Below, in pieces: positions 2,602 to 53,026 of a stretch of 64,000 nt of DNA (positions are counted from its first letter, which is position 1; every line of letters starts with the position of its first letter). The position numbers and the translations under genes were made by a program. The DNA is from Candidatus Zhuqueibacterota bacterium. Its GTDB lineage: Bacteria > Zhuqueibacterota > JdFR-76 > DREG01. The stretch is taken from contig JADFJB010000003.1 of NCBI GenBank assembly GCA_022566355.1, forward strand, positions 15,377 through 79,376, in the 5' to 3' direction. A model generated the notes under the pieces. That model was not told the DNA's origin and did not search any database. It worked only from the letters and a program-made list of their open reading frames with translations.

Positions 2602-4830
2602 TTATTTTATTACAACAAACCTACCGACTTTTTGATCTCCATTATCAGATTCGACTGAATAGAGGTAAATGCCGCTTGCAATCGGTCTGGTGTTTCTTGA
2701 AAGTAAGTTCCACCGAGCTCGGGATGACATAGGATCGTCATGCCGGATGGTATCGACCAAATCACCATCCACGGTAAATATTCGAATGGTGCATTTTGCC
2801 GGGACATTTACAAAATCGATAACGCGGAAGTTTTCGACTGCAACATTATTCGGTAATCCAAAATCCTCAAAACCGGAACGCTCTATATAAGGATTAGGCT
2901 CAGTCCAGATCTCTTGATCACCAAAACCTCCTGAAGTCTCTGCTGCTGGTGAGGCGGCTATTTTAATTCCATTTATTAGTGGGCTCGAGGCTAAGGTTTC
3001 GATTCCAAATGAGGGGGCGCCGCGATCAAAAGAAACTACTGCATAAGTGTATTCCAAACCATTTGGAACGTGGTCAACATAAGTGAAAGATAAACCTGTG
3101 TTGCGGCCTAAGTCATTATCCGGTAAATCATATTCTGCTAATATTTCAAAGGTTCCTAAAATACCGGTTGCACTTCTTAATACGCGGAATCCTTCGAAGT
3201 CCTTACTTTCATCTTCGGGTGTATTCGGATCATCTGAAACAAATGGATCTTTAAAGTTCAATGGCAAATTAGGATCGTTTGCATCGTAGCCCGGGCTTGA
3301 GGGATCTGCTTCCGACCAATCCAGGGTTATTGTATGGTCGCCAGGGGTAACCTTGAGTGGTGGTGATGGCGGAGGTGGCGGACCTGTAAAATCAGGAACC
3401 CCGTCCCCGGTATCGATAACGCCGTCACCGTCCAAATCGTCACCGAAATAGCCATCTCCGTCGGTGTCGACGCCCGGGTTATCAAACATAATTCCTGCCA
3501 TAAAGGCATTTCGACCTAAATCTACAAAAGATGCCGGGTCGAATGAGCCCAATGCTTGTGATATGGCAGCATCACCTTCACCGCCAATAATAGCATAGGT
3601 GAATAAAACAGTATCACCAGGGGCAAAGATCTTAACTGTCTGACCAAACATTGGATCGCTCGGGTCAGATATGGTTTCTTCCGTAGCTCCAAGAGGACCG
3701 AAAGAAATTAAAAATCGTGAGTTATCATTGGGATCGACACCAGCCGGAATATTTGGATTAAACTCCAGTGTCTCCGGATCGAATTGAGGATCATCAAAGG
3801 ATCCATTACTCATGAAGACGTATTTTTCAACGTCAACTTCCGGGGTGCCGACTTGCTCTCCATCATTTGGATCACCGGTATAAACGTTAGGTGTTATCGG
3901 TCCCCAGTCGTTTTTTGTGCTGATGTCGGAATCACTCATCCACCAGTTAAAAGAAACCTGGCCTTCTTCTGCTGTTGGCCGTAAAACCCGAACCCCTACA
4001 ACACCGGGCATGCAACCATCATCTCCATCAGGCTCCACAACCCAGGAAGTATTTACTCTATCACCAGTGGAATTAAATTGCATAAATCCTGTGGCGTCAT
4101 CTCTTTGGGACGCGTTTCCTATACAGCCCATGTCATTGTCGGCAAAAAATCCAGCATAAGCATTCCTGATACGGTTATTCCCGATATTTATGATCACCAG
4201 GTCGAAAAAGACAATATCCTCGGCAAAAGATAGGGAAAACTGGTAACTTTTTTCGATTATTTCCAAACCGAGTGCACGTTGGTGTTTGGGTGGAGCAAAT
4301 GGAAAGCCGGCAGCATTTAAAAAAGTATCTGAATATACCGCTATAAAGTCTTCTTCCGAGACCGCATCCGGATGGAAGAATGGACTACTCACAAGCGAAG
4401 AGCGAACTTCGATTGCCGAGCGATCGTCAGGATAATGAGGAAAGGTCTCAGCAAAATCTACAACACTCCAGGCTGAAGTGCCCTCGGAAACCAGGGTATC
4501 TAAATCACCGGGGTCATTTAAATCGGGGCCGCTGGTTGCATCGGATGGTACAATACCGCCGAACCACAATGCGCCGCGATTGATATACCGTGCCTGTCGG
4601 CCTACGAGGTCGGTACCAGGCCAGAACACACCACCCGTTGAATTCGTACCAAACTGACCAAAATTGGTGACCATGACCCATATTTTCCCATTTCTATGCT
4701 GTCTTGAATCGGCAAAATAATTTGCAAATTGTGCGAACAGGTTTCCGCTGGATAAGAATAATAACACCATAAGGAAACCTATGCCGCGACTAATCAATTT
4801 CGTTTTCATAATTGCTCCTTTATTAAACAC
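2602..4830 (-). CDS. T9SS C-terminal sorting domain-containing secreted protein (742 aa) with Pro-rich linker and Asp-rich Ca-binding-like repeats
   Basis: Signal peptide. C-terminus ...ASGIYLYSVESDNGDQKVGRFVVIK is a typical Por/T9SS CTD. Contains a PPPPPSPP linker and DTDGDGYFGDDLDGDGVIDTGDGVPD calcium-binding-like repeats. Tandem paralog of 1..1399. The start may be the internal Met MKTKLIS at about 4809. Confidence 0.85.
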   Translation of the reverse strand: MFNKGAIMKTKLISRGIGFLMVLLFLSSGNLFAQFANYFADSRQHRNGKIWVMVTNFGQFGTNSTGGVFWPGTDLVGRQARYINRGALWFGGIVPSDATSGPDLNDPGDLDTLVSEGTSAWSVVDFAETFPHYPDDRSAIEVRSSLVSSPFFHPDAVSEEDFIAVYSDTFLNAAGFPFAPPKHQRALGLEIIEKSYQFSLSFAEDIVFFDLVIINIGNNRIRNAYAGFFADNDMGCIGNASQRDDATGFMQFNSTGDRVNTSWVVEPDGDDGCMPGVVGVRVLRPTAEEGQVSFNWWMSDSDISTKNDWGPITPNVYTGDPNDGEQVGTPEVDVEKYVFMSNGSFDDPQFDPETLEFNPNIPAGVDPNDNSRFLISFGPLGATEETISDPSDPMFGQTVKIFAPGDTVLFTYAIIGGEGDAAISQALGSFDPASFVDLGRNAFMAGIMFDNPGVDTDGDGYFGDDLDGDGVIDTGDGVPDFTGPPPPPSPPLKVTPGDHTITLDWSEADPSSPGYDANDPNLPLNFKDPFVSDDPNTPEDESKDFEGFRVLRSATGILGTFEILAEYDLPDNDLGRNTGLSFTYVDHVPNGLEYTYAVVSFDRGAPSFGIETLASSPLINGIKIAASPAAETSGGFGDQEIWTEPNPYIERSGFEDFGLPNNVAVENFRVIDFVNVPAKCTIRIFTVDGDLVDTIRHDDPMSSRARWNLLSRNTRPIASGIYLYSVESDNGDQKVGRFVVIK

Positions 4831-12461: not shown

Positions 12462-12678
12462 AGGCCAGGCTTCAGATAAACAATTATTGGAAAACTGCTC
12501 GATCCGTTTGATTCTAACTAAGTAGTTAACTTGCTTTATTCATGAATTGCTTGTATAAGCAAAGTTTTCAAAAATTGCGATCATGAAGTAAAGTATCCAG
12601 GCTATCCGAGAACCGGGTTTTATTGCTTCTGAATGCTTAAAGCAGGAGTTCACTCTGTGGTTGATAACGTAAAAATAT

Positions 12679-12742
12679 CCCCGATAAAAGTATTCGGGGA
12701 TGACATATTGGTAGTTCTCAGATAGCCTGCTAAAAGCGTAGG
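12679..12742 (-). repeat. two REP-like hairpin units (family GTCAYYCCCGMATGCTTTTAGCGGG), inverted orientation
   Basis: Reverse complement reads gtcatccccgaatacttttatcgggg and cctacgcttttagcagg. Same family as the units at 17577-17720 and 18815-18905. Confidence 0.5.
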
Positions 12743-12760
12743 ATTTGCGAATAATCCAGG

Positions 12761-12824
12761 TTAATTAAGATTTCTCGTCGTAAACTCCGTTCGACTACGC
12801 TCACGACGCTGCCTCGAAATGACA
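12761..12824 (-). mobile_element. partial MITE-like element: TTAATTAA terminus plus about 55-bp core shared (inverted) with 52820..52885
   Basis: Core atttctcgtcgtaaactccgttcgactacgctcacgacgctgcctcgaaatgaca is the reverse complement of 52829-52885, with 3 mismatches. Confidence 0.5.
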
Positions 12825-13346
12825 ATTGAGTTGATTATTATCACTAATTCATCACTGGGATAATAGAACTTCAAGTGAAAATAAACTTTCATCTAGATTC
12901 GAGCTTTTCGCTGCAACACTAATCAAAGTTGGAGAAGAAATATTAGTCAGATCAATATTCGTTTTGCTGCCTGCATCCAAAAGGCTATCGTACATGGGGT
13001 ACTTGTTGAACGGATGGCAAGGAGATAAGTGATCCCATCTCCACTACCACCTACAGCATTCCAGGTACTATGATAATTGCCATCATCTTGCTTTTTGGGC
13101 TGACAAACCTGTATGAGAGGGGGAGCGCCCGCCAGACTAGCCAAATAGGCAGTATTAACCTGAACGACCTGCGAAAATAGTTAAAATTCATAAATTCGAT
13201 TAAATCATTGGTGTTGATGGATTCTTGTCACAACCTAATATTGAAAAAGCTATAATGAAAATTAACTGGCGAGGAAAATTAAATTGTCCCATTTTGTCTC
13301 TCATTTTCAAAAATTATAAAATTAGTAATGTAGAATCTTAAGAAGA

Positions 13347-13359
13347 ATTGTCAAGAAAA
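13347..13359. promoter_or_regulatory. second copy of the ATTGTCAAGAAAA motif, about 140 bp upstream of the permease gene
   Basis: Exact match to 11609..11621. Confidence 0.3.
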
Positions 13360-13497
13360 TATATCGAGTTGAGCTTAGTAAAGTTGCATGGCTTGACTTT
13401 CCAAAAAAAAACACCTACCTTGTCCAAAATCTAAAATAATCTATTTATAATTACTCCAAGTCTTAATAAAAATCCAGAAGGAACTCATAAATATAAA

Positions 13498-14844
13498 ATG
13501 GAACGTGGCGAAAGTGCTTCTTTGAAAAAAGCGATTGGTTTACCCCATGCTACTGCAATGGTTGTGGGAACGATTATAGGAGCATCTATTTTCGTTCAGC
13601 CATCGGAGATAACCACTCTGGTTCCTTCGCTACTTGGAATTTTCCTGGTTTGGATTATTTCAGGGGTGCTCACAATGTTTGGCGCTTTGGTGTGCGCCGA
13701 ATTAGCTTCCATCTTTAGCCGTAGTGGGGGTGTCTATATTTATTTAAAAGAAGCATTTTCACCTGCTCTTGGATTTTTGTGGGGCTGGGCAATGTTTTGG
13801 GTAATGCATTCCGGAATTATCGCAGTTATCGCCGTAGTTTTCGCACGCTATGTTGCTTATTTCATACCTTTGGATCCCCTAGCCATTAAAGCGGTAGCGA
13901 TAATAGTTATTATTGCTCTTTCTTTCATCAATTATATTGGTGTGAAACATGGTAGTATGCTGCAGACACTTTTTACTTTCGGGAAATTGGTTGCGATTCT
14001 TGCAATTATTATTTTGGGTTTTTCACTTGGGTCAGGTTTGACGACAAATTATCAAACAGAAGAAATGCTAACTTTTTCGGTGGGATTTGGCGATTTCGGT
14101 TTGGCATTGGTAGCCGGTCTTTTTGCTTTTGGTGGGTGGCACATGGTATCCTATAATGCTGGAGAAACCATTCAACCGCGAAAAACAATTCCACGGGCAT
14201 TAATACTAGGGACAGCCATTGTAATCTTTTGTTATATCGCTTTAAATGCAGTGTACATGTATGTCCTTCCATTAGAGGTTGTGGCTTCCTCCACGCGGGT
14301 GGCAGCCGATGCTGCGGATGCCGTTATCGGAAGTGGTGGTGGTGCAGTCATGTCGGGATTGGTTGTTTTTTCAACATTTGGTGCGCTAAGCGGAATTATT
14401 TTAGCAGGACCCCGTGTCTATTACGCAATGGCCCGGGATGGTCTGGTTTTTAAGTGGATGGGAGAAATCCATCCCAAATATCGAACGCCGCATCGATCTA
14501 TTCTCATTCAAGCCATCTGGTCATCAATACTGGTTAGTACCGGAACCTATCGAGTTCTTTTCACCAGGGTGATCTATACAGAGTGGATATTTTTCGGTCT
14601 TATGGCGATCGGTTTATTTGTCTTGCGAAAAAGATCAGATCTAAAAAGAGATTATTCAGTATGGGGATATCCCGTTGTTCCGGTGATATTTATTCTATCG
14701 GCATTTGCAATTGTTGCGAATCAAATTTATTCGGATTTAACCGAGTGTTTATTCGGTTTGTCGCTCGTTTTGATTGGCTTACCTGTTTATCATTTTTGGG
14801 CGAAGACCGGAATGACAAAGGAGGAGAACCATGAAAGTAATTGA
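13498..14844 (+). CDS. APC-family amino acid permease
   Basis: 448 aa, about 12 TM segments, typical APC N-terminal motif (GTIIGASIF). Overlaps the next gene by 14 bp, suggesting translational coupling. Confidence 0.9.
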   Translation: MERGESASLKKAIGLPHATAMVVGTIIGASIFVQPSEITTLVPSLLGIFLVWIISGVLTMFGALVCAELASIFSRSGGVYIYLKEAFSPALGFLWGWAMFWVMHSGIIAVIAVVFARYVAYFIPLDPLAIKAVAIIVIIALSFINYIGVKHGSMLQTLFTFGKLVAILAIIILGFSLGSGLTTNYQTEEMLTFSVGFGDFGLALVAGLFAFGGWHMVSYNAGETIQPRKTIPRALILGTAIVIFCYIALNAVYMYVLPLEVVASSTRVAADAADAVIGSGGGAVMSGLVVFSTFGALSGIILAGPRVYYAMARDGLVFKWMGEIHPKYRTPHRSILIQAIWSSILVSTGTYRVLFTRVIYTEWIFFGLMAIGLFVLRKRSDLKRDYSVWGYPVVPVIFILSAFAIVANQIYSDLTECLFGLSLVLIGLPVYHFWAKTGMTKEENHESN

Positions 14845-15811
14845 CTTCCATAATCACTATTATCCCCCGGAATACCTGCGAGCTTTACAAGAGGGTTCAA
14901 GTACCATCAAAGTCACATTCGATTCCGAGAATAACCCATTGCTCCATTATCCGGGTGACTACAATGTGGTTGTTCCAGGGCATAGAGACATTGCATTTAG
15001 AGAGACTGTCCTTGAAAAAGAGAAAATTGATAAACAAGTATTAACCTTTACCTCACCGGGAACCCACATTGAAAAAAACGATTTCTCTATTGAACTGGCC
15101 ATGTTGGTAAACAATATGTTAGCCAGAATTAAAGATGAAAAATCTCACTGTTTCACCGCGCTAGCTACACTGCCATTAAATAATCCACAAGCTTCGGTAA
15201 AAGAATTCGAGAGAGCAACCAAAGAACTTGGTTTCGCGGGTTGTATGTTGTTTAGCAACGTAAACGGGACTGCTTTAAGTGATGACCGCTATTGGCCTTT
15301 GTATGAAAGTGCGAATGAAGCAAAAACAGTATTCTATATTCATCCAATACATCCTGTGGGTGTAGAGGCAATGTTGGATTATTGGCTTATGCCATTAATT
15401 GGCTTTACTTTTGATACGACTTTAGCTGCCGCGAAATTAGTGTTCAGCGGTGTTATTGAACGATTCCCCGAAATTCGCTGGGTGTTGGCGCATTTAGGCG
15501 GTGCAATTCCATATCTTGCAGAAAGACTCGACCGTGGTTTTTATGCATTTAAAGAGTGCCGGCAGAATATCAGCAAACCACCTAGTGAGTACTTGAAAAA
15601 TTTTTATTTTGATACCGTTAATTTTGACACCAAAGCCTTGCAACTTGCGATCGATTTTGCCGGAACGGATCATATATTGGCAGGCAGTGATTACCCCCAT
15701 AAAATAGGAAGCCTGGAACAAATGCTTCAAAGTATTAACGATTTGAAGATTTCATCTAAAGCCAAAGAGGATATTTTATGGAACAATACAGAGAGACTCC
15801 TGGGCTTATAA
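14831..15811 (+). CDS. amidohydrolase_2 family metal-dependent hydrolase/decarboxylase (ACMSD-like)
   Basis: MKVIDFHNHYYPPEY (HxH metal motif) near the N-terminus and AGSDYPH near the C-terminus. 326 aa. Confidence 0.85.
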   Translation: MKVIDFHNHYYPPEYLRALQEGSSTIKVTFDSENNPLLHYPGDYNVVVPGHRDIAFRETVLEKEKIDKQVLTFTSPGTHIEKNDFSIELAMLVNNMLARIKDEKSHCFTALATLPLNNPQASVKEFERATKELGFAGCMLFSNVNGTALSDDRYWPLYESANEAKTVFYIHPIHPVGVEAMLDYWLMPLIGFTFDTTLAAAKLVFSGVIERFPEIRWVLAHLGGAIPYLAERLDRGFYAFKECRQNISKPPSEYLKNFYFDTVNFDTKALQLAIDFAGTDHILAGSDYPHKIGSLEQMLQSINDLKISSKAKEDILWNNTERLLGL

Positions 15812-17576: not shown

Positions 17577-17720
17577 GTCATCCCGTCGTACAGGATGCTG
17601 CAGAGTGTCGTTCCCGAATGCTTTCAGGGTGCCCGCGTACTACCCAAAATGTCATCCTCTAATGTTTTCAGCCTGTCCGAGAACTCCAAAAATGTCACGC
17701 CCGAGTGCTTTTATCGGGGG
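17577..17720 (+). repeat. array of about 4 contiguous REP-like hairpin units (about 25-45 bp each)
   Basis: Units gtcatcccgtcgtacaggatg, gtcgttcccgaatgctttcaggg, gtcatcctctaatgttttcagcc and gtcacgcccgagtgcttttatcggggg. Each can form a 5-7 bp stem around an ATGCTTTTA-like loop. The track ORF 17553..17750 lies inside this array and is judged spurious. Confidence 0.6.
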
Positions 17721-17792
17721 TCTATGAGCCTGTCTTGCATATGCGAGTAAAATATTGCATGCTGAAAAAGTATATCCTGTAGAGAATTAGTG

Positions 17793-18156
17793 ATGAAGAT
17801 CTTAGCAAACGAAAATATTCCTGGCGGGGTAGTTCATGAGCTCCGATCAGTAGGATACGATGTTGCCTGGATAAGAGATAGCACCAGGTATTACAGATGC
17901 TGAAGTTTTAGATATTGCAGTAAATGAAAATCGTATTTTGATTACTTTTGATAAAGATTTTGGCGAATTAGTTTTTAATAAAAAATTAAAAGCTTCACCA
18001 AGTATTATTTTATTTCGAATTATTCCCTCATCACCGTCTAAAATTGCACAAACTGCAGTTTCTATCTTAAAAAGTCGAACTGATTGGGGTGGACATTTTT
18101 CTGTTATAGAAGAAAACCGCATAAGAATGACAAAATTACCAATGAATAAACTTTGA
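17793..18156 (+). CDS. DUF5615 (PIN-like, Mut7-C-like) domain protein, disrupted by a 1-nt frameshift at the CC dinucleotide 17884-17885
   Basis: N-terminal MKILANENIPGGVVHELRSVGYDVAWIRDS in one frame. Continuation ...ITDAEVLDIAVNENRILITFDKDFGELVF... in the +1 frame (track ORF 17938..18156). Deleting one C restores a contiguous protein of about 120 aa. Confidence 0.7.
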
Positions 18157-18166
18157 TCTATTAAAA

Positions 18167-18706
18167 GTGAATATCTTAGTCGGTTCTCTCAATCCGGTAA
18201 AAATTGATGCTGTAAAAATTTCCTTCTCAACCTATTTTCCGGATATAACGGTTAGTGGTATTGAGGTTTTTTCAAATGTTGCGGGTCAACCGGTAGATTC
18301 GGATACCTTCCTTGGCGCCCAAAATCGTGCAAAAGCATTACAAAAAATAGATACTGAACAAAATCTTAAAGCCCGATTTTTTGTTGGAATCGAAGGAGGT
18401 ATTCAGGAAATCTTTTCAAAATGGTTTGCTTTCGGTTGCATGTGTATTATGGATCGGGAAGGCAAAATTGGATTTGGCACCTCTCCCCAGTTTGAACTTC
18501 CTATGGTCATTGTCGAGCGTTTACTGAACGGTGAAGAACTCGGTGACGTTATAGATGATCTCACCGGATTGAAAAACACAAAACAAAAACAAGGGGCAAT
18601 TGGATATTTAACACAGGGTGTTTTGGATCGCAAGAATATTTATGTCCAGGGATTACATATGGCTCTCATCCCATTTTTAAATCCAGGTCTTTTCAATTCC
18701 AAGTAA
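18167..18706 (+). CDS. yjjX: inosine/xanthosine triphosphatase (non-canonical purine NTP phosphatase, YjjX family)
   Basis: The conserved pattern matches E. coli YjjX: NP.K...NRA...FVGIEGGI...GEELG.V.D..TG......KQGAIGYLT.G.L.R...Y.Q.L.MALIPF.N. GTG start. Confidence 0.85.
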   Translation: MNILVGSLNPVKIDAVKISFSTYFPDITVSGIEVFSNVAGQPVDSDTFLGAQNRAKALQKIDTEQNLKARFFVGIEGGIQEIFSKWFAFGCMCIMDREGKIGFGTSPQFELPMVIVERLLNGEELGDVIDDLTGLKNTKQKQGAIGYLTQGVLDRKNIYVQGLHMALIPFLNPGLFNSK

Positions 18707-18781
18707 TCGGTTATTTTCTGAAATTCGAAATTAGAATTTATTATTGGCAATGATGTTCTTTTTATAGATATTTAAAATTTA

Positions 18782-18954
18782 TTAATTAGTGTCTGAACGA
18801 AAAGCATCCATTCTGTCATTCCCGCATGCTTTTAGCGGGAATCTACCTGCTTGAAATGATTAGATTTCGGCTCAAGCTTGTCCCTGCATGTTTTTAGCAG
18901 GGAAGATTACCGGAATAACACTAGTTGTCGAGTTTTCGTTCAGACACTAATTAA
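18782..18954. mobile_element. 173-bp MITE with perfect 22-bp terminal inverted repeats (TTAATTAGTGTCTGAACGAAAA), carrying two internal REP-like hairpins
   Basis: Left end 18782-18803 is the exact reverse complement of right end 18933-18954. Internal units gtcattcccgcatgcttttagcgggaatc (18815-18842) and gtccctgcatgtttttagcagggaag (18880-18905). No ORF. Confidence 0.7.
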
Positions 18955-19227
18955 GAAACGAATTCAGTTCTATCGAAATATCAGGAGGTGAAAATGGCAG
19001 ACCAGGTGTAATTCAGTATCCCACCTCGCAGTCTGGCTCGCGCAGATGTTGAATTTCAGAGAAAACGGAACTTTGATGGGAACATTACAAATTTCAAAAG
19101 GATCGTTGGTGTGGTTTCCGGCAAAAACGACTTATGGCCATAAGATGGAATGGGGTAAATTTGCGAAGATCATGCAACAGGAGACTGCATTGATTTGAGC
19201 AGAGATGACAAACCAAGAGATTGTGGT

Positions 19228-21214: not shown

Positions 21215-21447
21215 AAAGGATGTAATCCATAATAAATAATAATTTACAAGGTGACAAAGGCACAAAGTAACAAAGGTACAATGAAAAGTAATAAAATGTG
21301 AAACGGCAAACAAAAAGATGAAGTTACAGAAAATTGGCTTAGTTTGGTTAGATTTAGTAGTAGATATCTAGTTAAATTTCAATATTATTATTGATATAAC
21401 TCAGGATTTAACCTGGTTGATTTTTTAAAACAGTTTTAGGAAAACTA

Positions 21448-26968: not shown

Positions 26969-27191
26969 TGGAATTATAAGTCGTTAGTAATTCCCTGTGC
27001 AAGTTATTGGTCTAAGAATTATGTAAATGGCCAACTAAATTTCAATCAATATGAATACTAAATATAACTGATTGAATTTGCAGAAAAGGAAATTAGGGGT
27101 GCGAGTAACCCATTGGAGAGGGCTGGGTACATGGTTGGTAAAAAAATATCACATTATCGAATTTCTGGTGGATAAGATAGGGTTATTGTAA

Positions 27192-27729
27192 ATGAGCCAA
27201 CCGATTGTACATCATCGTAAATCTATTAGATTGCAAGAATATGATTACGGGCAAGCAGGGGCTTATTATATAACAATTTGTACCTATGACAAAAAATGTA
27301 TCTTCGGGACTATTACTGATGGACAAATGCTTCTGAGCGAATTTGGGCAAATTATGGAGGATTGCTGGAAAACAATTCCCAAGCATTTTGATTTTGTTCT
27401 GTTAGATGTGTATAGTATCATGCCAAATCATTTACATGGAATTTTAATAATAGTAGGCGACGCATGCGTCGCCCCTACTAAAATTACAAAATTCGATGAG
27501 ACCAGCAGGACCTCAATCTCGGTCATTGGGTGCAATTATAGGTTCATTTAAATCTGCAACAACAAAACAAATTAATGAATTACGTGACACTCCTGGTTAC
27601 CAAGTTTGGCAACGAAATTATTATGATCATATAATCCGTACAAAAAGATCTTTACAGCACATCCGGAAATATATCTTCAATAATCCACTAAACTGGAATT
27701 TGGATGAAGAAAACCCTGGGAAAGCTTAA
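27192..27729 (+). CDS. Y1 HuH transposase of IS200/IS605 / REP-associated tyrosine transposase (RAYT) family, interrupted by a 1-nt frameshift at CCCC 27472-27475
   Basis: HuH motif NHLHGILII in the first track ORF (27192..27551). The downstream part SLGAIIGSFKSATTKQIN...WQRNYYDHIIR (catalytic Tyr region) is in the +1 ORF (27496..27729). Removing one C gives a continuous protein of about 179 aa. Confidence 0.75.
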
Positions 27730-30655
27730 ATGATAGGTAAAACAATATCTCATTACAAAATCCTCGAAAAGCTCGGCAGTGGCGGCATGGGTGTGGTTTA
27801 CAAAGCCCAGGACCTAAAACTCGACCGCTTCGTCGCCCTTAAATTTCTGCCGCCACACATCAGCGCAGATGGGGATGAAAAGAAACGTTTTATACACGAA
27901 GCCAAGGCGGCATCTGCTCTACAGCACAACAACATCTGCACCATCCATGAAATCGGAGAGACGGATGATGGGCAGATGTTCATTTGTATGGACTACTACG
28001 AAGGGGAAACCCTCAAGAAAAAGATCGAGCGCGGGCCTTTGAACCTGGAAGATGCAATCGATATTGCGATTCAAATTTCCCAGGGTTTGGCCAAGGCACA
28101 TTCCAAAGAAATCACCCATCGAGATATCAAGCCCGCAAATATTCTCATCACGGAAGAAAAGCAAGTCAAGATCGTCGACTTCGGACTGGCGAAGCTAGCC
28201 GGTCGGACAGTGCTTACCAAAGAAGGGACGACCATAGGAACGGTTGCCTACATGTCGCCTGAGCAGGCACAAGGTACGGAAGTGGACCATCGCACCGATA
28301 TTTGGGCATTAGGAGTAGTTTTGTATGAAATGCTTACTGGCAAGCAGCCGTTTGCAGGAGATTATGAACAGGCTGTGATGTATTCGATCATGAACGAAGA
28401 CGCCGAGCCGATTACGGGTTTGCGGACCGGTGTGCCGATGGAATTGGAGCGGATTGTTAACAAGTGTCTGGAGAAAACTCCGGGGAATCGCTACCAATCG
28501 GTTAATGAACTTATTGTGGACTTGCGGCGGATAAGAAAAGTTGCTAATCCCGAGAACGTTGCTCCTGCAGCTTACAAGAAGTTAGAAACGGCGAGTTTTA
28601 AAAAGCGAGCATTTATCTGGATTGGAGTTAGTCTTGCTGTCATTTTCACGGCAATTGCTGGTTATTTGTTTCTTGCTAGAGAAGCAAGCAGTCCAGAACG
28701 TATCCCCATTGCAGTTGTGGACGTCATAAATGAGACTGGTGAGAAGGAACTAGATGGATTTATCCGGTCTGCTCATTACATCATTAGAGCAATCGCGGCG
28801 ATTGTCTGTTCTCACTCGATCAAGACTATTTGACATTCTCAAGCAAATGGGCAAGCCGAACATCGAACAAATCGACGTGGAACTTGGGCGGGAGATTTGT
28901 AGGAAGGCAAACATTAACTTCCTGGCAATTGCCTCTATCAGAAAATTTGGCCGGGTTTATACACTTGACTTTAAGCTACTTGATACTAACAAGAACAGAT
29001 ATTTTCTGACCGCATCTGAAAACGGTGAAGGGCACGAGAGTATCCCTGATTTGATTGACAAACTGGCAAAAAGAATACGGCAAGGTTTTAAGGAGAAATC
29101 TAGCGAAATTCAGGCTGAAAGCCAAGCTGTTACAGAATTAACGACTTCAAATTTGGAGGCATATCGATATTATAATCTTGGCGAAACGCTCTTGAGTCAA
29201 TTCAAATATAGAGAAGCTGCTGAAGAGTTCAAAAGAGCCGTCACCCTGGACTCGACATTTGCTCTTGCTCATTTCCGGTTGGCTTTTGCTAAACAGTATG
29301 GTGGTATGGGAGGGGACAAGGAAGCTATGCGGATGGCCATAAAATACATCGACAAAGTGCCTGAAAAAGAGCATTTTTTGATCAGGGCACAAGATGCATG
29401 GTTTAATAATAGACGGGAAAAGTCATACACACTGTATCAGGAAGTTTTGAAAATATATCCTCAGGAGAAGGAAGCACTCCTTCAAATTGCCGAATATATG
29501 TTGCACCATACTTTGGATCCAATTTCCGCACTACAATATTTTGAGAAATCGGTCGATGCAGATCCTGGCTATGGGGATGGCCTGGGACATCTAATTTATC
29601 TGAATCACGCTCTAAAAAGACACGATAAGGCAATCGAATATGCACTGCAGTTTGTTGATTTGCATCCGGGCGAGGCATCGTATCGCAGATTAGGAGAGAC
29701 TTACTGCTTTGCTGGTCAATTTAGCAAGGCAGAAGAAGTATTGAATAGAGCCTTAGAACTATTCCCCCGAAGCCCAGGGCTAGTTATCACTAAGGCGAAT
29801 ATCCCAGTCTTTAAGGAGAGTTATGAGACTGCAAAAGCTCAGATCACTGTGTTTCTATTAGATGCCAATTCCATATCGGAGCGAAGAATGGGTTCTCGAT
29901 ACCTGGCCGACTTATATGCTTATCAGGGAAAATATAAAGAAATTGAAGCAGTGTTTGACAAGATTATCGGGTTGGACTCGATGTCAGATCCAGATGCCAG
30001 GCTAAGATTTGATTACGCGGAAAAGGCATGGTGGCTTGCAGTCGGAAGGGGCGATGGAAACGCTGCTAAAACGGAAATTGAGAAGGCAAAAAGGATCGGA
30101 GGCCAACAAATCTCCTGGTTCTTTATGTCTCTTTTGCGAACTTATTTGCTTTTGGGCGAATTTGATGCTGCCGATTCTAGTTATTCGGCTGCAATCGCTT
30201 TAGCTGGTGAGGAAATGCATCCTTTTAGGTCGCACCTGATTAATGGGTATAAATACAAATCTCGCCAGGAATTTGGCAAGGCTGCTGCCGAGTTTGAAAA
30301 GTGGATAGAAATTAGAGGCTCGTTTAACTTTTGGGACAAAGTATTTTATTTATACGAACTTGCAGGTTGTTATTTTAGCTTAGGCGATTACAAGAAAGCG
30401 ATTGAAACCATCGCCAATATGCAAGGAATTTATATAACCTTTACGCCTAACAATAATTTACCTAGCTCACGTGGCGCCGTTTATCCGAGGGGCTTCCATC
30501 TTCTCGGCAAGATCTATGAGAAACAAGGTGAACCTAAGCGTGCCATCGAAAACTACGAAAAATTCCTCGAAATCTGGAAAAACGCCGACGAAGATTTGCC
30601 GGATTTGATCGATGCGAAGGCGAGGCTGGCGAGATTGAAGGAAAACTCGAAGTAA
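27730..30655 (+). CDS. Hanks-type Ser/Thr protein kinase - TM - TPR-repeat sensor protein, split by a 1-nt frameshift at TTT 28759-28761
   Basis: Kinase motifs GSGGMGVVYKA, HRDIKPANIL, DFGLAK, GTVAYMSPE. A TM helix (IWIGVSLAVIFTAIAGYLFL). The second ORF (28754..30655) continues ...ELDG|LSGLLITSLEQSRRLSVLTR, the canonical post-TM segment of this kinase class, and then TPR repeats. A TTT to TT correction fuses them into about 975 aa. Confidence 0.8.
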
Positions 30656-50391: not shown

Positions 50392-50976
50392 TATTTTACC
50401 TATCTCATAAGATAAATTTTTAACAACAATTCGATTTGATTAATTGTACGCTGACTGATCTCAGAATTATGTTTAACCATCCTTGTTTGACGAAGTGCGT
50501 TAATATATGCAGATATCCTATAAAATCAATATAAAACGCCAGGGTGCTAAATCCTTAAATCCGTGGATTACCGCTTATATGCTTATAGATATTAATGAGG
50601 TGGTGTAATTTGTTATGCAATCACGTATTTTGTTGAGCCACATAAAATAATCTAAGTAATCTAACGAATGACCAAGTTATTTTCTCAAACTACTTTTTGA
50701 TATACCTTATTAGCTATAATTTCTTGATAAGAGGAATTGGGTTTTAACAGCAAACCTATGATTAGTTTAACCTGTCTTGTGTTTATCTGCTCGTCAGTAT
50801 AAAACTTGCCGGTTCCCGGAATATTAGATGGATCCAGGCTTGAATTGCGAAGACGCCATTTCTAATCATCAAAGTCAATGTAGCCACGAAGGTTTTAATA
50901 ACTTATCGCAAATAAAAAATGTCAATGCATCTATTTTTTCTTTTTTTCTTTGTTACTCTGTGCCTTTGTGCCTTTG

Positions 50977-52197
50977 TTACTTTGTTACCACCCAGGGAAA
51001 TAAAAAAGCGTCGATAAGTTCGCCCTCGTACAAAGATACACCAGCATCAATGAGTATAAACCCATTCGCATTGACAATGGTCGAAATCATGTGCGAACCT
51101 TGTTTCTCCAAAGGATAAGCTATTGGTTTTCCTTGTGAATTTGTTGTGATTTGAACACGCATAAGATGAGCTCTGTTTAATTTGTTTTGAATAGGCTCTT
51201 GTAATTCCGCTTGCAAGGGGAAAGCGGTCTTAACTTTTCCACATAGCTGATGAATCATTGGATGGATAAAATAGGAATAACACATAAATGCTGAAACGGG
51301 ATTTCCGGGTAATCCAAACAAAAGAGTATTCTCTTTTTTAGCGAACAGAAGCGGTTTGCCTGGTTTTATCCGAACTCGCCAAAATAAAGTTTCGAATCCC
51401 ACTTTCTGTACCGCTTCTTTAATATGGTCGTGAGGTCCCACTGAAACACCGCCAGATAAAATGATGAGGTTGCAATTTTCCATAATCCGCTCAAGTAATT
51501 CGACTGTTTGATCCAGGCTATCAGGAACTTTTTCCACGGCTTTCACTAAACCGCCGGATTGTTGCAGTGCTGTGGACAGCATGATTCCATTTGAATCGCG
51601 AATTTGCCAAGGTTGTACAGGCTGATCAAATGGGACAAGTTCAGTTCCGGTAACAATTATGGCTGCTTGTGGTCTCGCATAGACGGATAATTGAGATAAG
51701 CCTACTGAAGCCAATAAAGCAATCTGGGGGGGATGGATTTCCATACCCTTGGGGATTAGAAGATCGCCTGCTTTAAATTCCTCACCTTCATAGCGAATAT
51801 TTTGTCCCTTCTTTTTAACCTGCAAAATCTTAACCATTGAGCCGGTTACTTCTACTTCTTCAATTGGGACAACCGTATCAGCACCTTCAGCCACCATGGC
51901 GCCTGTACTGATTCTAACAGCTTTACCCGATATTAATTTTTCCTGAAATGGTATTCCCGCCTGGCTTTCTCCAACGATTTTGAGAGACACCGGGTTTGCA
52001 GATGAAGTGGATCGGATATCATCCCATCGCAATGCAAAGCCATCCATGGCGCTGTTGGTATAACGGGGTGAAGGCTCCGGTGCAAGAATATCTTCTGCAG
52101 ATATTAACCCTAACGCATCTTGCAATTTTGCCGAAGTTATTTCTTTTTCCGGTAAATGATCTTGAATGATTTTAGATGCTTCTTGTATTGAAATCAT
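50977..52197 (-). CDS. moeA: molybdopterin molybdotransferase MoeA
   Basis: MoeA N-terminal and central domains plus the MoCF-binding domain with LILSGGVSVG. Confidence 0.9.
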   Translation of the reverse strand: MISIQEASKIIQDHLPEKEITSAKLQDALGLISAEDILAPEPSPRYTNSAMDGFALRWDDIRSTSSANPVSLKIVGESQAGIPFQEKLISGKAVRISTGAMVAEGADTVVPIEEVEVTGSMVKILQVKKKGQNIRYEGEEFKAGDLLIPKGMEIHPPQIALLASVGLSQLSVYARPQAAIIVTGTELVPFDQPVQPWQIRDSNGIMLSTALQQSGGLVKAVEKVPDSLDQTVELLERIMENCNLIILSGGVSVGPHDHIKEAVQKVGFETLFWRVRIKPGKPLLFAKKENTLLFGLPGNPVSAFMCYSYFIHPMIHQLCGKVKTAFPLQAELQEPIQNKLNRAHLMRVQITTNSQGKPIAYPLEKQGSHMISTIVNANGFILIDAGVSLYEGELIDAFLFPWVVTK

Positions 52198-52410
52198 ATT
52201 GGATACTCCAACTGAAGATTTACAATTATAGATTATTTTTGGATCATCATAATAATGGCGTACTTATTCTTTGCCACAGACTTGCACAGACTAAAACGGA
52301 AATGCGATCAGACAGGATTAGCATGATGAACAAGATTTATAAAGCGATAAATAAAAATGGCTAGTGCTTCTAAAACCGTTGAAACGGTTATAACTTATTG
52401 TTTTTTTGTC

Positions 52411-52440
52411 ATTAACACCTGGCTTAAGCCAGGTGTTAAT
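52411..52440. promoter_or_regulatory. 30-bp perfect palindrome (ATTAACACCTGGC-TTAA-GCCAGGTGTTAAT) in the moeA/modA divergent intergenic region, flanked by inverted GTTGAAAC motifs
   Basis: Read directly. 13-bp arms. AAACCGTTGAAACGGTT at about 52373-52389 and GGTTTCAACCG at about 52450-52462 form an outer inverted pair. Candidate operator. Confidence 0.4.
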
Positions 52441-52819
52441 AGGATTATGAATGGTTTCAACCGCTTTAGCTGTTTTTATAACCATCATTCTTCTATCTAC
52501 ATACGTTCTGTGTTTATATTGAAATTAAAGAAATATTTTTTTAAACTGATTTTTATCTGAATCAATCAACATTTTATGAGAAATTTAACGTCTTAAAATA
52601 AAGCATTCATTCAATATTTTTGGCGTAAGATTATTGAAATATTTCCTTAGATAAACTTCGATTCCTAATTGAAAAAGTACGTAGATAAATCATTAAAGAC
52701 CAGAAAGAAAAAGATTTTGAACTGTTTGAATATATCGCTAAATATAATGTCAACATTGATCCAGTTCCGTTATTTTCAAGTGAGAAATGTTAGTATGTAA
52801 TAAACATTCTGAAAATACC

Positions 52820-52885
52820 TTAATTAGCTGTCGTTTCGAGGCAGCGTCGTGAACGTAGTCGAACGGAGTTTACGATGAGAAATCT
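52820..52885 (+). mobile_element. partial MITE-like element: TTAATTAG terminus plus about 55-bp core, inverted copy of 12761..12824
   Basis: ttaattagctgtcgtttcgaggcagcgtcgtgaacgtagtcgaacggagtttacgatgagaaatct. Shares its TTAATTAG terminus with the intact MITE at 18782. Confidence 0.5.
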
Positions 52886-53026
52886 ATTGATCCAAAAAAT
52901 ATAACTTGTAAAAGGCAAGATTTTTCCTCCTTGAGTTTTGTAATTGTTAAATGACCCTAGCCAATAAACGTTTGAATAATAGTACGCATTTGTTTAAATT
53001 GCAAGGCTTAAAAGTAACATTAGAAT

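Follow-up and report, generated by a model that had tools for sequence, protein, structure and literature searches.

The 64,000-nt stretch of contig JADFJB010000003.1 analysed here (hereafter the window; 40.7% G+C) originates from a genome of Candidatus Zhuqueibacterota (KSB1) and carries short, TGTC-tagged hairpin repeats, two families of miniature inverted-repeat transposable elements (MITEs) that enclose them and, 9 kb away, a gene related to those for tyrosine transposases associated with repetitive extragenic palindromes (REPs), the RAYTs. In the first-pass annotation, the repeats had been counted as at least nine REP-like units and interpreted as the substrates of the RAYT. The window was compared with near-identical strain variants in GCA_022571655.1 and several ENA metagenome assemblies (loci L001-L010), which are independent assemblies of the locus, and 10 kb past its right end were included, bringing the sequence in view to approximately 74 kb. 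A covariance model of the repeat unit (R1) was built from 85 non-identical copies sampled across phyla and searched against the window with filters off. It yields four significant matches; the fifth-ranked match has an E-value of 0.39. A search with the consensus of the first-pass annotation, allowing up to three mismatches, returns three matches (12680 on the minus strand, 17694 and 18815 on the plus strand) versus 0.00 expected from shuffled sequences.

The unit is composed of a TGTC tag that stays unpaired, a stem of 8 bp opening with A-T/T-A, a 9-nt loop (ATGCTTTTA), a C straight after the stem and a short tail. Three window copies are intact (Table 1). All three carry the TGTC tag and thereby the GTC 5' of the palindrome, two of the three have the C 3' of it, and their tails read CTA, CTA and ATT. 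The loop comprises 9 nt in every window copy. When folded as single-stranded DNA (ssDNA), the intact units and one headless hairpin core at 18881 form hairpins of a GC stem and a T-rich loop of 9 nt at -6.3 to -8.1 kcal/mol (z-scores of -2.7 to -4.4). At all three sites, the units belong to heads-out (HH) dimers, with the tags pointing outward, in which the partner is decayed or deleted. Every solid unit in the window is intergenic, most often downstream of a gene on the same strand. A search of the whole window against Rfam (gathering thresholds) and a tRNA scan gave no match.

The number of nine units is an over-count, because R1 gives only four significant matches and the other pieces either do not fold or resemble spacers: three intact units and one headless core are solid by both R1 and folding, and the rest is decayed. 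The supposed run of four contiguous units at 17577-17720 dissolves into a single intact unit, a minimal hairpin and two tandem relics that have diverged. Its first piece (17577-17597) is a small TGTC hairpin of 5 bp with a fold no more stable than that of shuffled sequences (z = -0.42). The pieces at 17606 and 17648 have no fold (z of about 0 and +1.1, respectively) and represent a decayed unit with its spacer in two diverged copies lying in tandem. Tandem Repeats Finder did not detect an array at 17577-17720. The general description of each unit as a GC stem with a T-rich loop is therefore accurate for the three intact units and the 18881 core, but not for these three pieces. Similarly, of the two inverted units located at 12679-12742, the one at 12671-12708 on the minus strand is solid, while 12706-12742 is spacer-like and homologous to 17654-17692. 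Both units assigned to the MITE at 18778-18958 are recovered with significance, 18811-18848 in full and 18881-18903 as a hairpin core only. This core is nested in the long loop of a decayed inverted partner, a layout with a homologous counterpart in locus L059.

Table 1. Tagged hairpins, mobile elements and the RAYT-type gene in the window (positions are those of the window).
Feature	Position	Strand	Characteristics
Best-preserved unit	18811-18848	+	TGTC, 8-bp stem ATTCCCGC/GCGGGAAT, loop ATGCTTTTA, C, tail TAC; 56.7 bits, E = 7e-13; fold -8.1 kcal/mol, z = -4.4
Intact unit TGTCACGCCCGAGTGCTTTTATCGGGGGTC, left half of heads-out dimer	17690-17727	+	48.7 bits; fold -6.3 kcal/mol
Intact hairpin TGTCATCCCCGAATACTTTTATCGGGGAT, with A in place of the conserved C after it	12671-12708	-	47.5 bits; fold -7.9 kcal/mol, z = -3.9
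Decayed partner of the 12671-12708 unit; heads-out dimer with 18-nt spacer	12620-12652	+	From sequence and alignment of MITE-A copies; R1 not significant
Hairpin core CCCTGC-ATGTTTTTA-GCAGGG, without TGTCAT head	18881-18903	+	26.9 bits, model positions 9-31 only; fold -7.1 kcal/mol
Decayed inverted partner of the 18811-18848 unit; heads-out pair	18862-18920	-	Minus strand TGTTATTCCGG...CCGAAATCT, ~40-nt loop; compared with L059 (TGTCATTCCGGC...GCCGGAATCC) and L119
MITE-B, 181 nt, encloses dimer	18778-18958		26-nt terminal inverted repeats (TTTATTAATTAGTGTCTGAACGAAAA), 96% complementary
MITE-A copy 1, left end TTAACCTGGATAATTCATGAA	17530-17727	+	Holds small TGTC hairpin 17577-17597, tandem relics 17606-17689 and intact unit
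MITE-A copy 2, complete, TTAAC...GTTAA inverted ends	12526-12764	-	Three-way alignment; holds 12620/12671 dimer
RAYT-type Y1 HUH gene, TnpAY1 subclass 2.4, frameshifted	27192-27729	+	HuH = NHLH; GTAG-contact stretch WQRNYYDHIIR; catalytic Tyr in KYIFNNP (27670-27672)
GTAG...CTAC double-foot palindrome (GTAGGCGACGCATGCGTCGCCCCTAC; GTAGG..CGACGCATGCGTCGCCCCTAC) inside RAYT gene	27452-27477		2 G where the frame needs 4
TGTC-tagged hairpin with other stem	52404-52440	+	TGTC + ATTAACACCTGGC TTAA GCCAGGTGTTAAT, 13 bp; fold -13.4 kcal/mol, z = -7.1; R1 not significant
76-nt repeat including TGTC-headed segment (TGTCGTTTCGAGGCAGCGTCGTGA...GAGAAATC)	52810-52885; inverted copy 12768-12843	+; -	84% identity over 76 nt

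The element at 18778-18958 (MITE-B), which was rightly recognised as a MITE in the first-pass annotation, and the TTAACCTGG-ended elements have terminal inverted repeats (TIRs), are small and non-coding and occur in several copies. Relatives of MITE-B are found in L119, from a Cytophagia metagenome-assembled genome (MAG), and in L059, from another KSB1 MAG. MITE-A has the ends TTAACCTGGATAATTCATGAA...TTCATGAATAGTCCAGGTTAA and is present twice in the window and a third time, with 308 nt and 70% identity, in L080 (a MAG labelled Deferribacteres). Its ends resemble those of an autonomous element: approximately 50 nt on the left and 35 nt on the right are similar to the termini of an IS110-family element that strain variant L001 carries at 13320-15010. 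In this strain variant, about 160 nt of the window (21236-21397) are replaced by a 3.8-kb segment (L001 13055-16901) that comprises an IS110-family (DEDD) transposase gene and a gene for a Por_Secre_tail protein. The right part of MITE-A copy 1 is missing due to a strain-specific deletion of 273 nt at window position 17727/17728. The deleted stretch is present in L001 (9294-9566) and L006 and absent from the window strain and five other assemblies. Besides an inverted TGTC unit, i.e., the partner of the unit at 17690-17727 according to the strain alignment, it comprises the right terminus of MITE-A together with the beginning of an antitoxin-like DUF433 gene, and it is bounded by the near-identical hexamers GCCTGT and GCTTGT. 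Among the strain variants, no presence/absence polymorphism of the MITEs was observed: the differences around 12.5 kb are scaffolding N runs, and the only real difference is the 273-nt deletion. The open reading frame (ORF) downstream of the deletion (from 17794) looks frameshifted near 17890; together with the DUF433 region, it may represent a decaying toxin-antitoxin pair.

The motif is not confined to this locus. A scan for the exact pattern TGTCAYNCCYGNNTNYTTTTANCRGG across one genome per species (1.2e12 positions) identified at least 120 matching stretches, compared to about four expected by chance according to our own estimate. Among the matches listed are Omnitrophota, anammox Planctomycetota, Nitrospirae, Calditrichia, Ignavibacteria, Bacteroidota, Binatia, Desulfobulbaceae, Chloroflexi, KSB1 and others. 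The usual form in these genomes is a heads-out dimer, in which TGTCATTCCCGCATGCTTTTAGCGGGAATCCAG is followed by a spacer and an inverted partner ending in ...ATGACA, and most units across phyla are such free dimers without the TIRs of MITE-A or MITE-B. A scan of viral contigs gave only two matches; hence, the units are not phage-borne. Across the 85 copies underlying R1, 98.5% of the stem cells are paired, and the pairs covary: pair 10-30 is UA in 49, CG in 22, GC in nine and AU in two copies, pair 15-25 is AU in 53 and CG in 29, and pair 9-31 is UA in 77 and CG in seven, with pair 8-32 being AU in 81 of the 85. Shifting the stem partners by one to three columns lowers pairing to 54% or less. 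The covariation of the outer pairs is not built in by the selection, because for pairs 8-32, 9-31 and 10-30, the search pattern does not reach the 3' side. The C after the stem, though likewise not part of the pattern, is conserved in at least 90% of the copies.

A generic scan for tagged hairpins over the 120 unit-selected loci returned 269 hairpins, of which 216 have a 9-nt loop (many being partners that the pattern had not selected) and 28 a 4-nt loop, the latter sometimes sharing a dimer with a 9-nt-loop unit. The tag is TGTC in 225 and CGTC in 39 hairpins, and the tail is CCA in 172 and CTA in 42. Dimers are heads-out in 89 cases, heads-in (TT) in 12 and tandem (HT) in five. Only 33% of the units fall inside stop-to-stop ORFs, which cover 88% of the bases in these loci. 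The view of the repeats as REP-like extragenic hairpins that occur in clusters and inside a MITE is upheld. Clustering of the ORFs in the 120 loci revealed only generic recurrent neighbours (histidine kinases, ABC transporters), with the exception of a small GIY-YIG gene.

Hairpins of this kind have been described under two names. Di Nocera et al. (2013; PMC3733652) defined a superfamily of CGTC-tagged REPs (families CGTC-1 to CGTC-4, with the tag often being TGTC), characterised by a stem of 8-9 bp that begins with AT, a 4-5 nt loop, a CCA tail and mainly HH dimers. It was reported from Proteobacteria, Chlorobi, Bacteroidetes, Spirochaetes and Thermotogae and includes Neisseria dRS3. The authors found no transposase associated with the superfamily and no CGTC units flanking the RAYT genes of those species (PMC3733652). 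In the work of Chenal et al. (2025; PMC11893778), the Neisseria repeat is newly defined as NTS (CGTCATTCCCGCGMAVGCGGGAATCYRG) and extended to a general class of Ssn-related motifs (SRM) with the pattern HGTCWYN(0-2)YYVSBRHN(0-5)WNVSBRGN(0-2)RNCYNB. Their SsnA, a GIY-YIG protein of 94 aa with a single domain, binds the motif in ssDNA form only, shows no interaction with its RNA version and cuts a few nucleotides upstream. Cleavage depends on the three nucleotides that lie 5' of the palindrome and can dispense with the loop; for binding, the C directly following the palindrome matters most. Typically, ssnA genes have the motif on either side (NTS-ssnA-NTS), and dRS3 in Neisseria is a known target of a phage recombinase (PMC11893778).

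The units of the window share the unpaired CGTC/TGTC tag, the 8-bp stem starting with A-T/T-A and a 3-nt tail (CCA in relatives, CTA here) with the CGTC superfamily, as well as mostly HH dimers in extragenic positions without an associated transposase gene; they differ in occurring in phyla beyond the five reported. The observation that the consensus is unlike classical REPs applies only to the GTAG-type REPs; the units do fit the described CGTC/TGTC superfamily, which was reported to lack a RAYT association. With NTS/SRM, they have in common the (C/T)GTC tag, the C after the stem and a CYR tail. The best window copy also has the very stem of NTS, ATTCCCGC/GCGGGAAT, and agrees at 18814-18846 exactly with the degenerate SRM pattern, versus 0.14 matches expected. 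The loop differs (ATGYTTTTA, 9 nt, versus GMAV), as do the embedding of the window copies in MITEs and the host, KSB1 rather than a proteobacterial symbiont or pathogen. The window copies form part of a 9-nt-loop subfamily (ATGYTTTTA) that is spread over many phyla.

The association with small GIY-YIG genes also extends to this subfamily. Three of the 120 unit-selected loci hold such genes, four in total (Pfam GIY-YIG, 61.6 bits), and all four are bracketed by R1 units. Conversely, 80 relatives of these genes were collected from JGI metagenomes by protein similarity, and their 1.5-kb flanks were searched with R1. An R1 match is present within 150 nt of the gene in 77 of the 80, on both sides in 51, and on both sides in heads-out orientation in 45. 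The density of R1 matches amounts to 6.8 per kb near the Ssn-like genes and 0.23 per kb farther off. In L138, the exact 9-nt-loop unit type of the window lies on both sides of the ssn gene, and units of this type bracket small GIY-YIG genes heads-out, as NTS does. The GIY-YIG proteins near units are 92-100 aa long and gave only distant GIY-YIG matches in PDB and NCBIfam. Larger arrangements than a mere pair are found as well: in L011 (6683-6947, 7554-7630), ssn-like genes lie amid dense arrays of 5-15 alternating units, and likewise in L110 (524-835, 3728-4815), where two ssn paralogues, 4 kb apart, each have their own array.

Taken as a whole, we consider it probable that the repeats of the window belong to this already described family of CGTC/TGTC-tagged extragenic hairpins (NTS/SRM), that the family's partner is an Ssn-type nuclease, that the units travel in MITEs here and that the RAYT gene is both broken and unrelated to them. 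The analysis demonstrates the family membership, the covariation of the hairpin, the association with Ssn at the level of the family, the lack of a RAYT association and the frameshift, whereas the action of an Ssn on the window copies and their transport by MITEs are inferred. In ssDNA, a unit folds. In the systems studied so far, this fold is bound by a small single-domain GIY-YIG endonuclease (Ssn), which recognises the tag together with the stem and the 3' C and cleaves that strand a few nucleotides 5' of the tag; genes for Ssn typically lie between two units with their tags pointing outward. By analogy, Ssn may act on the window copies in this organism too. Heads-out dimers, most with a decayed partner, form the cores of both MITE families, and the ends of MITE-A resemble those of an IS110-family element. 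Since the units sit in MITE cores and MITE-A has IS110-type ends, they have probably spread here as MITE passengers, with the MITEs as the vehicles that moved them in this genome.

Several observations weigh against this interpretation. The SRM pattern fits only one of the three intact copies; the other two fail at one stem position, because the pattern excludes their A-T loop-closing pair. The 9-nt loop also departs from the 4-5 nt of the four described CGTC families. The membership of the GIY-YIG genes in cd10448 and their homology to SsnA of N. meningitidis are putative; searches of PDB and NCBIfam did not assign these genes to cd10448. No ssn-like ORF was detected in the window, in the strain loci (tblastn and a small HMM) or in the 10 kb past the right end, where no units occur either and no GIY-YIG gene is present; consequently, a partner enzyme for this genome is not demonstrated in the ~74 kb. 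In a search for homologues with an Ssn profile, none among the 120 matches listed is named KSB1. All window copies lie within 6.3 kb (12.6-18.9 kb) of the ~74 kb visible. Most of them have decayed, the 3' C is absent from one intact copy, and the units may be inert relics. Ssn is not known to transpose anything.

The gene at 27192-27729 was correctly assigned to the RAYT type rather than to IS200. An IS200/IS605 copy is rejected, as the gene has the class 2 Y---NP motif instead of Y---Q, no flanking hairpins that could serve as ends and no tnpB. It scores 25 bits against Pfam Y1_Tnp (cut-off 23) and 60 against the NCBIfam RAYT equivalog (cut-off 80). Its N-H-u-H, WQ and YIxNNP motifs and its patchy occurrence across phyla agree with TnpAY1 subclass 2.4 / Bertels group 4, in which a GTAG double-foot palindrome lies inside the gene (Quentin et al. 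2018; PMC6006769), while NHLH instead of NH[IFV]H and a frameshift in the G-run of this palindrome set it apart. The only solved relative, E. coli TnpAREP (4ER8), served as a reference. Its GTAG-tag readers W94, Q95, E100, H101 and R104 align to WQRNYYDHIIR, in which W-Q-x4-D-H-x2-R is kept, and its catalytic Y115 aligns to the Y of KYIFNNP. While the HuH motif noted in the first-pass annotation is indeed present, YYDH is therefore part of the tag-reading stretch and not the catalytic site it had been taken for.

The frameshift splits the gene over two frames (27192-27551 and 27496-27729). In an alignment of three assemblies, the G-run of the palindrome comprises two G in the window and three in both L002 and L003, where four are needed, and the 77-aa C-terminal fragment is recorded as a product in its own right on five contigs. 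With four G restored, the protein reads ...NHLHGILIIVGATHASPL..., and its insert VGATHASPL equals the family consensus. The best RAYT homologues have an identity of at most 61%. In three homologues of ~57% amino acid identity on unrelated contigs, the 28-bp palindrome GTAGGGGCGACGCATGCGTCGCCCCTAC, which encodes VGATHASPL, is conserved at 28/28, 28/28 and 27/28 positions (L134 96-123 and 413-440, L135 3391-3418, L136 ~4289-4316), and in L134, a second copy is located just upstream of the RAYT gene. No TGTC unit is found upstream of the window gene (26969-27191), and the next gene starts at 27730. Given the identity of the palindrome in distant homologues, the absence of units near RAYT genes and the frameshift, the GTAG palindrome is likely the cognate REP of this RAYT, as judged from sequence, and the gene is a pseudogene in this population. 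The proposed link between the RAYT gene and the TGTC units is not supported.

The most obvious competing explanation, namely that the hairpins are REPs mobilised by this RAYT and form a non-GTAG REP/RAYT system in a non-proteobacterial phylum, is thereby largely refuted, and we deem it highly improbable. It draws on a genuine RAYT-type Y1 HUH gene that occurs once in the window, on REP-like, extragenic hairpins in inverted dimers and on L134, where three units lie ~1 kb from a RAYT gene. The parallel with REP/RAYT systems (REPtrons; Nunvar 2010; Ton-Hoang 2012; Messing 2012, PDB 4ER8) is real insofar as short tagged hairpins form inverted dimers and ssDNA is recognised by a small nuclease, the gene of which lies between its own repeats. 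However, the tag is TGTC here versus GT[AG]G, and the partner of the family is a GIY-YIG instead of a Y1 HUH protein. None of four RAYT genes of this subclass (the window gene and its three homologues) has an R1 unit within 150 nt, in contrast to the 77 of 80 flanked Ssn-like genes, and no RAYT homologue occurs in the ~1 Mb of the 120 unit-selected and 80 Ssn loci. Moreover, the enzyme has retained its GTAG-contact residues and possesses a palindrome of its own, DNA-identical in distant homologues, the gene is frameshifted in all three aligned assemblies, and the literature likewise reports no RAYT association for CGTC/TGTC repeats (PMC3733652).

A second possibility is that the hairpins have no dedicated enzyme here and are decaying relics carried as passive cargo by MITEs, with MITE-A being moved by the IS110-family (DEDD) recombinase of the strain variant. 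All solid units do lie inside TIR-bounded elements, MITE-A has IS110-like ends and recurs within the window and in the MAG labelled Deferribacteres, the partner units are decayed, no ssn gene is present in the ~74 kb, and a phage recombinase targets dRS3 in Neisseria (PMC11893778). Yet no IS110 homologue was detected in the other 200 loci, so IS110 is rejected as a general partner or spreading route of the family and its link with MITE-A is local to this lineage. Most units across phyla are free dimers without these TIRs, the MITEs show no presence/absence polymorphism among strain variants, and target-site duplications are not clear-cut. We regard passive carriage as the sole explanation as unlikely, though it is compatible with the family assignment preferred here and does not exclude it. 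Finally, the hairpins could act as RNA, i.e., as terminators, mRNA stabilisers or structured small RNAs, in line with their position between genes and most often downstream of a same-strand gene, their covarying stem and the proposal of Di Nocera et al. that many REPs are transcribed (PMC3733652). Intrinsic terminators are rejected, because neither strand has a T-run after the stem. An RNA role in general is highly improbable: no Rfam family matches, units in inverted dimers face both ways with respect to the genes next to them, SsnA shows no interaction with an RNA copy of the motif (PMC11893778), and the conserved unpaired tag and 3' C correspond to the protein-contact map of Ssn.

The value of these findings is mainly corrective, as an apparent pair of REPs and RAYT in an uncultivated phylum resolves into two unrelated, previously described systems 9 kb apart, and the current picture of these elements is unchanged. 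Modestly new are a 9-nt-loop variant of the Ssn-motif/CGTC-REP family, which was previously characterised in Neisseria and mostly Proteobacteria, and its presence in KSB1, Omnitrophota, anammox Planctomycetota, Nitrospirae, Calditrichia, Ignavibacteria, Binatia and others, its position on either side of small GIY-YIG genes, and the ability of its units to ride inside MITEs. A more far-reaching but unlikely reading is that the 9-nt-loop hairpins constitute a distinct Ssn-motif subfamily that travels between phyla and was captured here in the cores of IS110-derived MITEs, implying a functional coupling between DEDD (IS110/Piv-type) recombinases and Ssn motifs. The loop is conserved in more than 15 phyla and yet dispensable for cleavage by SsnA in vitro, which, if this reading were true, would indicate a second hairpin reader. 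The functional coupling of DEDD recombinases with Ssn motifs would then echo the dRS3-targeting phage recombinase of Neisseria.

Some further repeats and genes in the window deserve mention. The TGTC-tagged hairpin with a different stem at 52404-52440 is situated in a divergent intergenic region (52198-53026) with more short palindromes on its flanks. The 76-nt repeat starts with TGTC(A/G)TTTCGAGG and ends with GAGAAATC, and its predicted fold is no better than that of shuffles; it may be a further subfamily of tagged hairpins with a long insert. Downstream of the RAYT gene, a Ser/Thr-kinase-like ORF (27730-28833, 367 aa) overlaps the ORF at 28754-30655 (633 aa) by 80 nt in another frame, and the two are either separate genes or one frameshifted long gene. 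Lastly, an inverted pair of ~50-nt stretches of degenerate 8-nt repeats (ACAAAGGN / CTTTGTTA) occupies the intergenic positions 21241-21296 and 50935-50985, ~30 kb apart.

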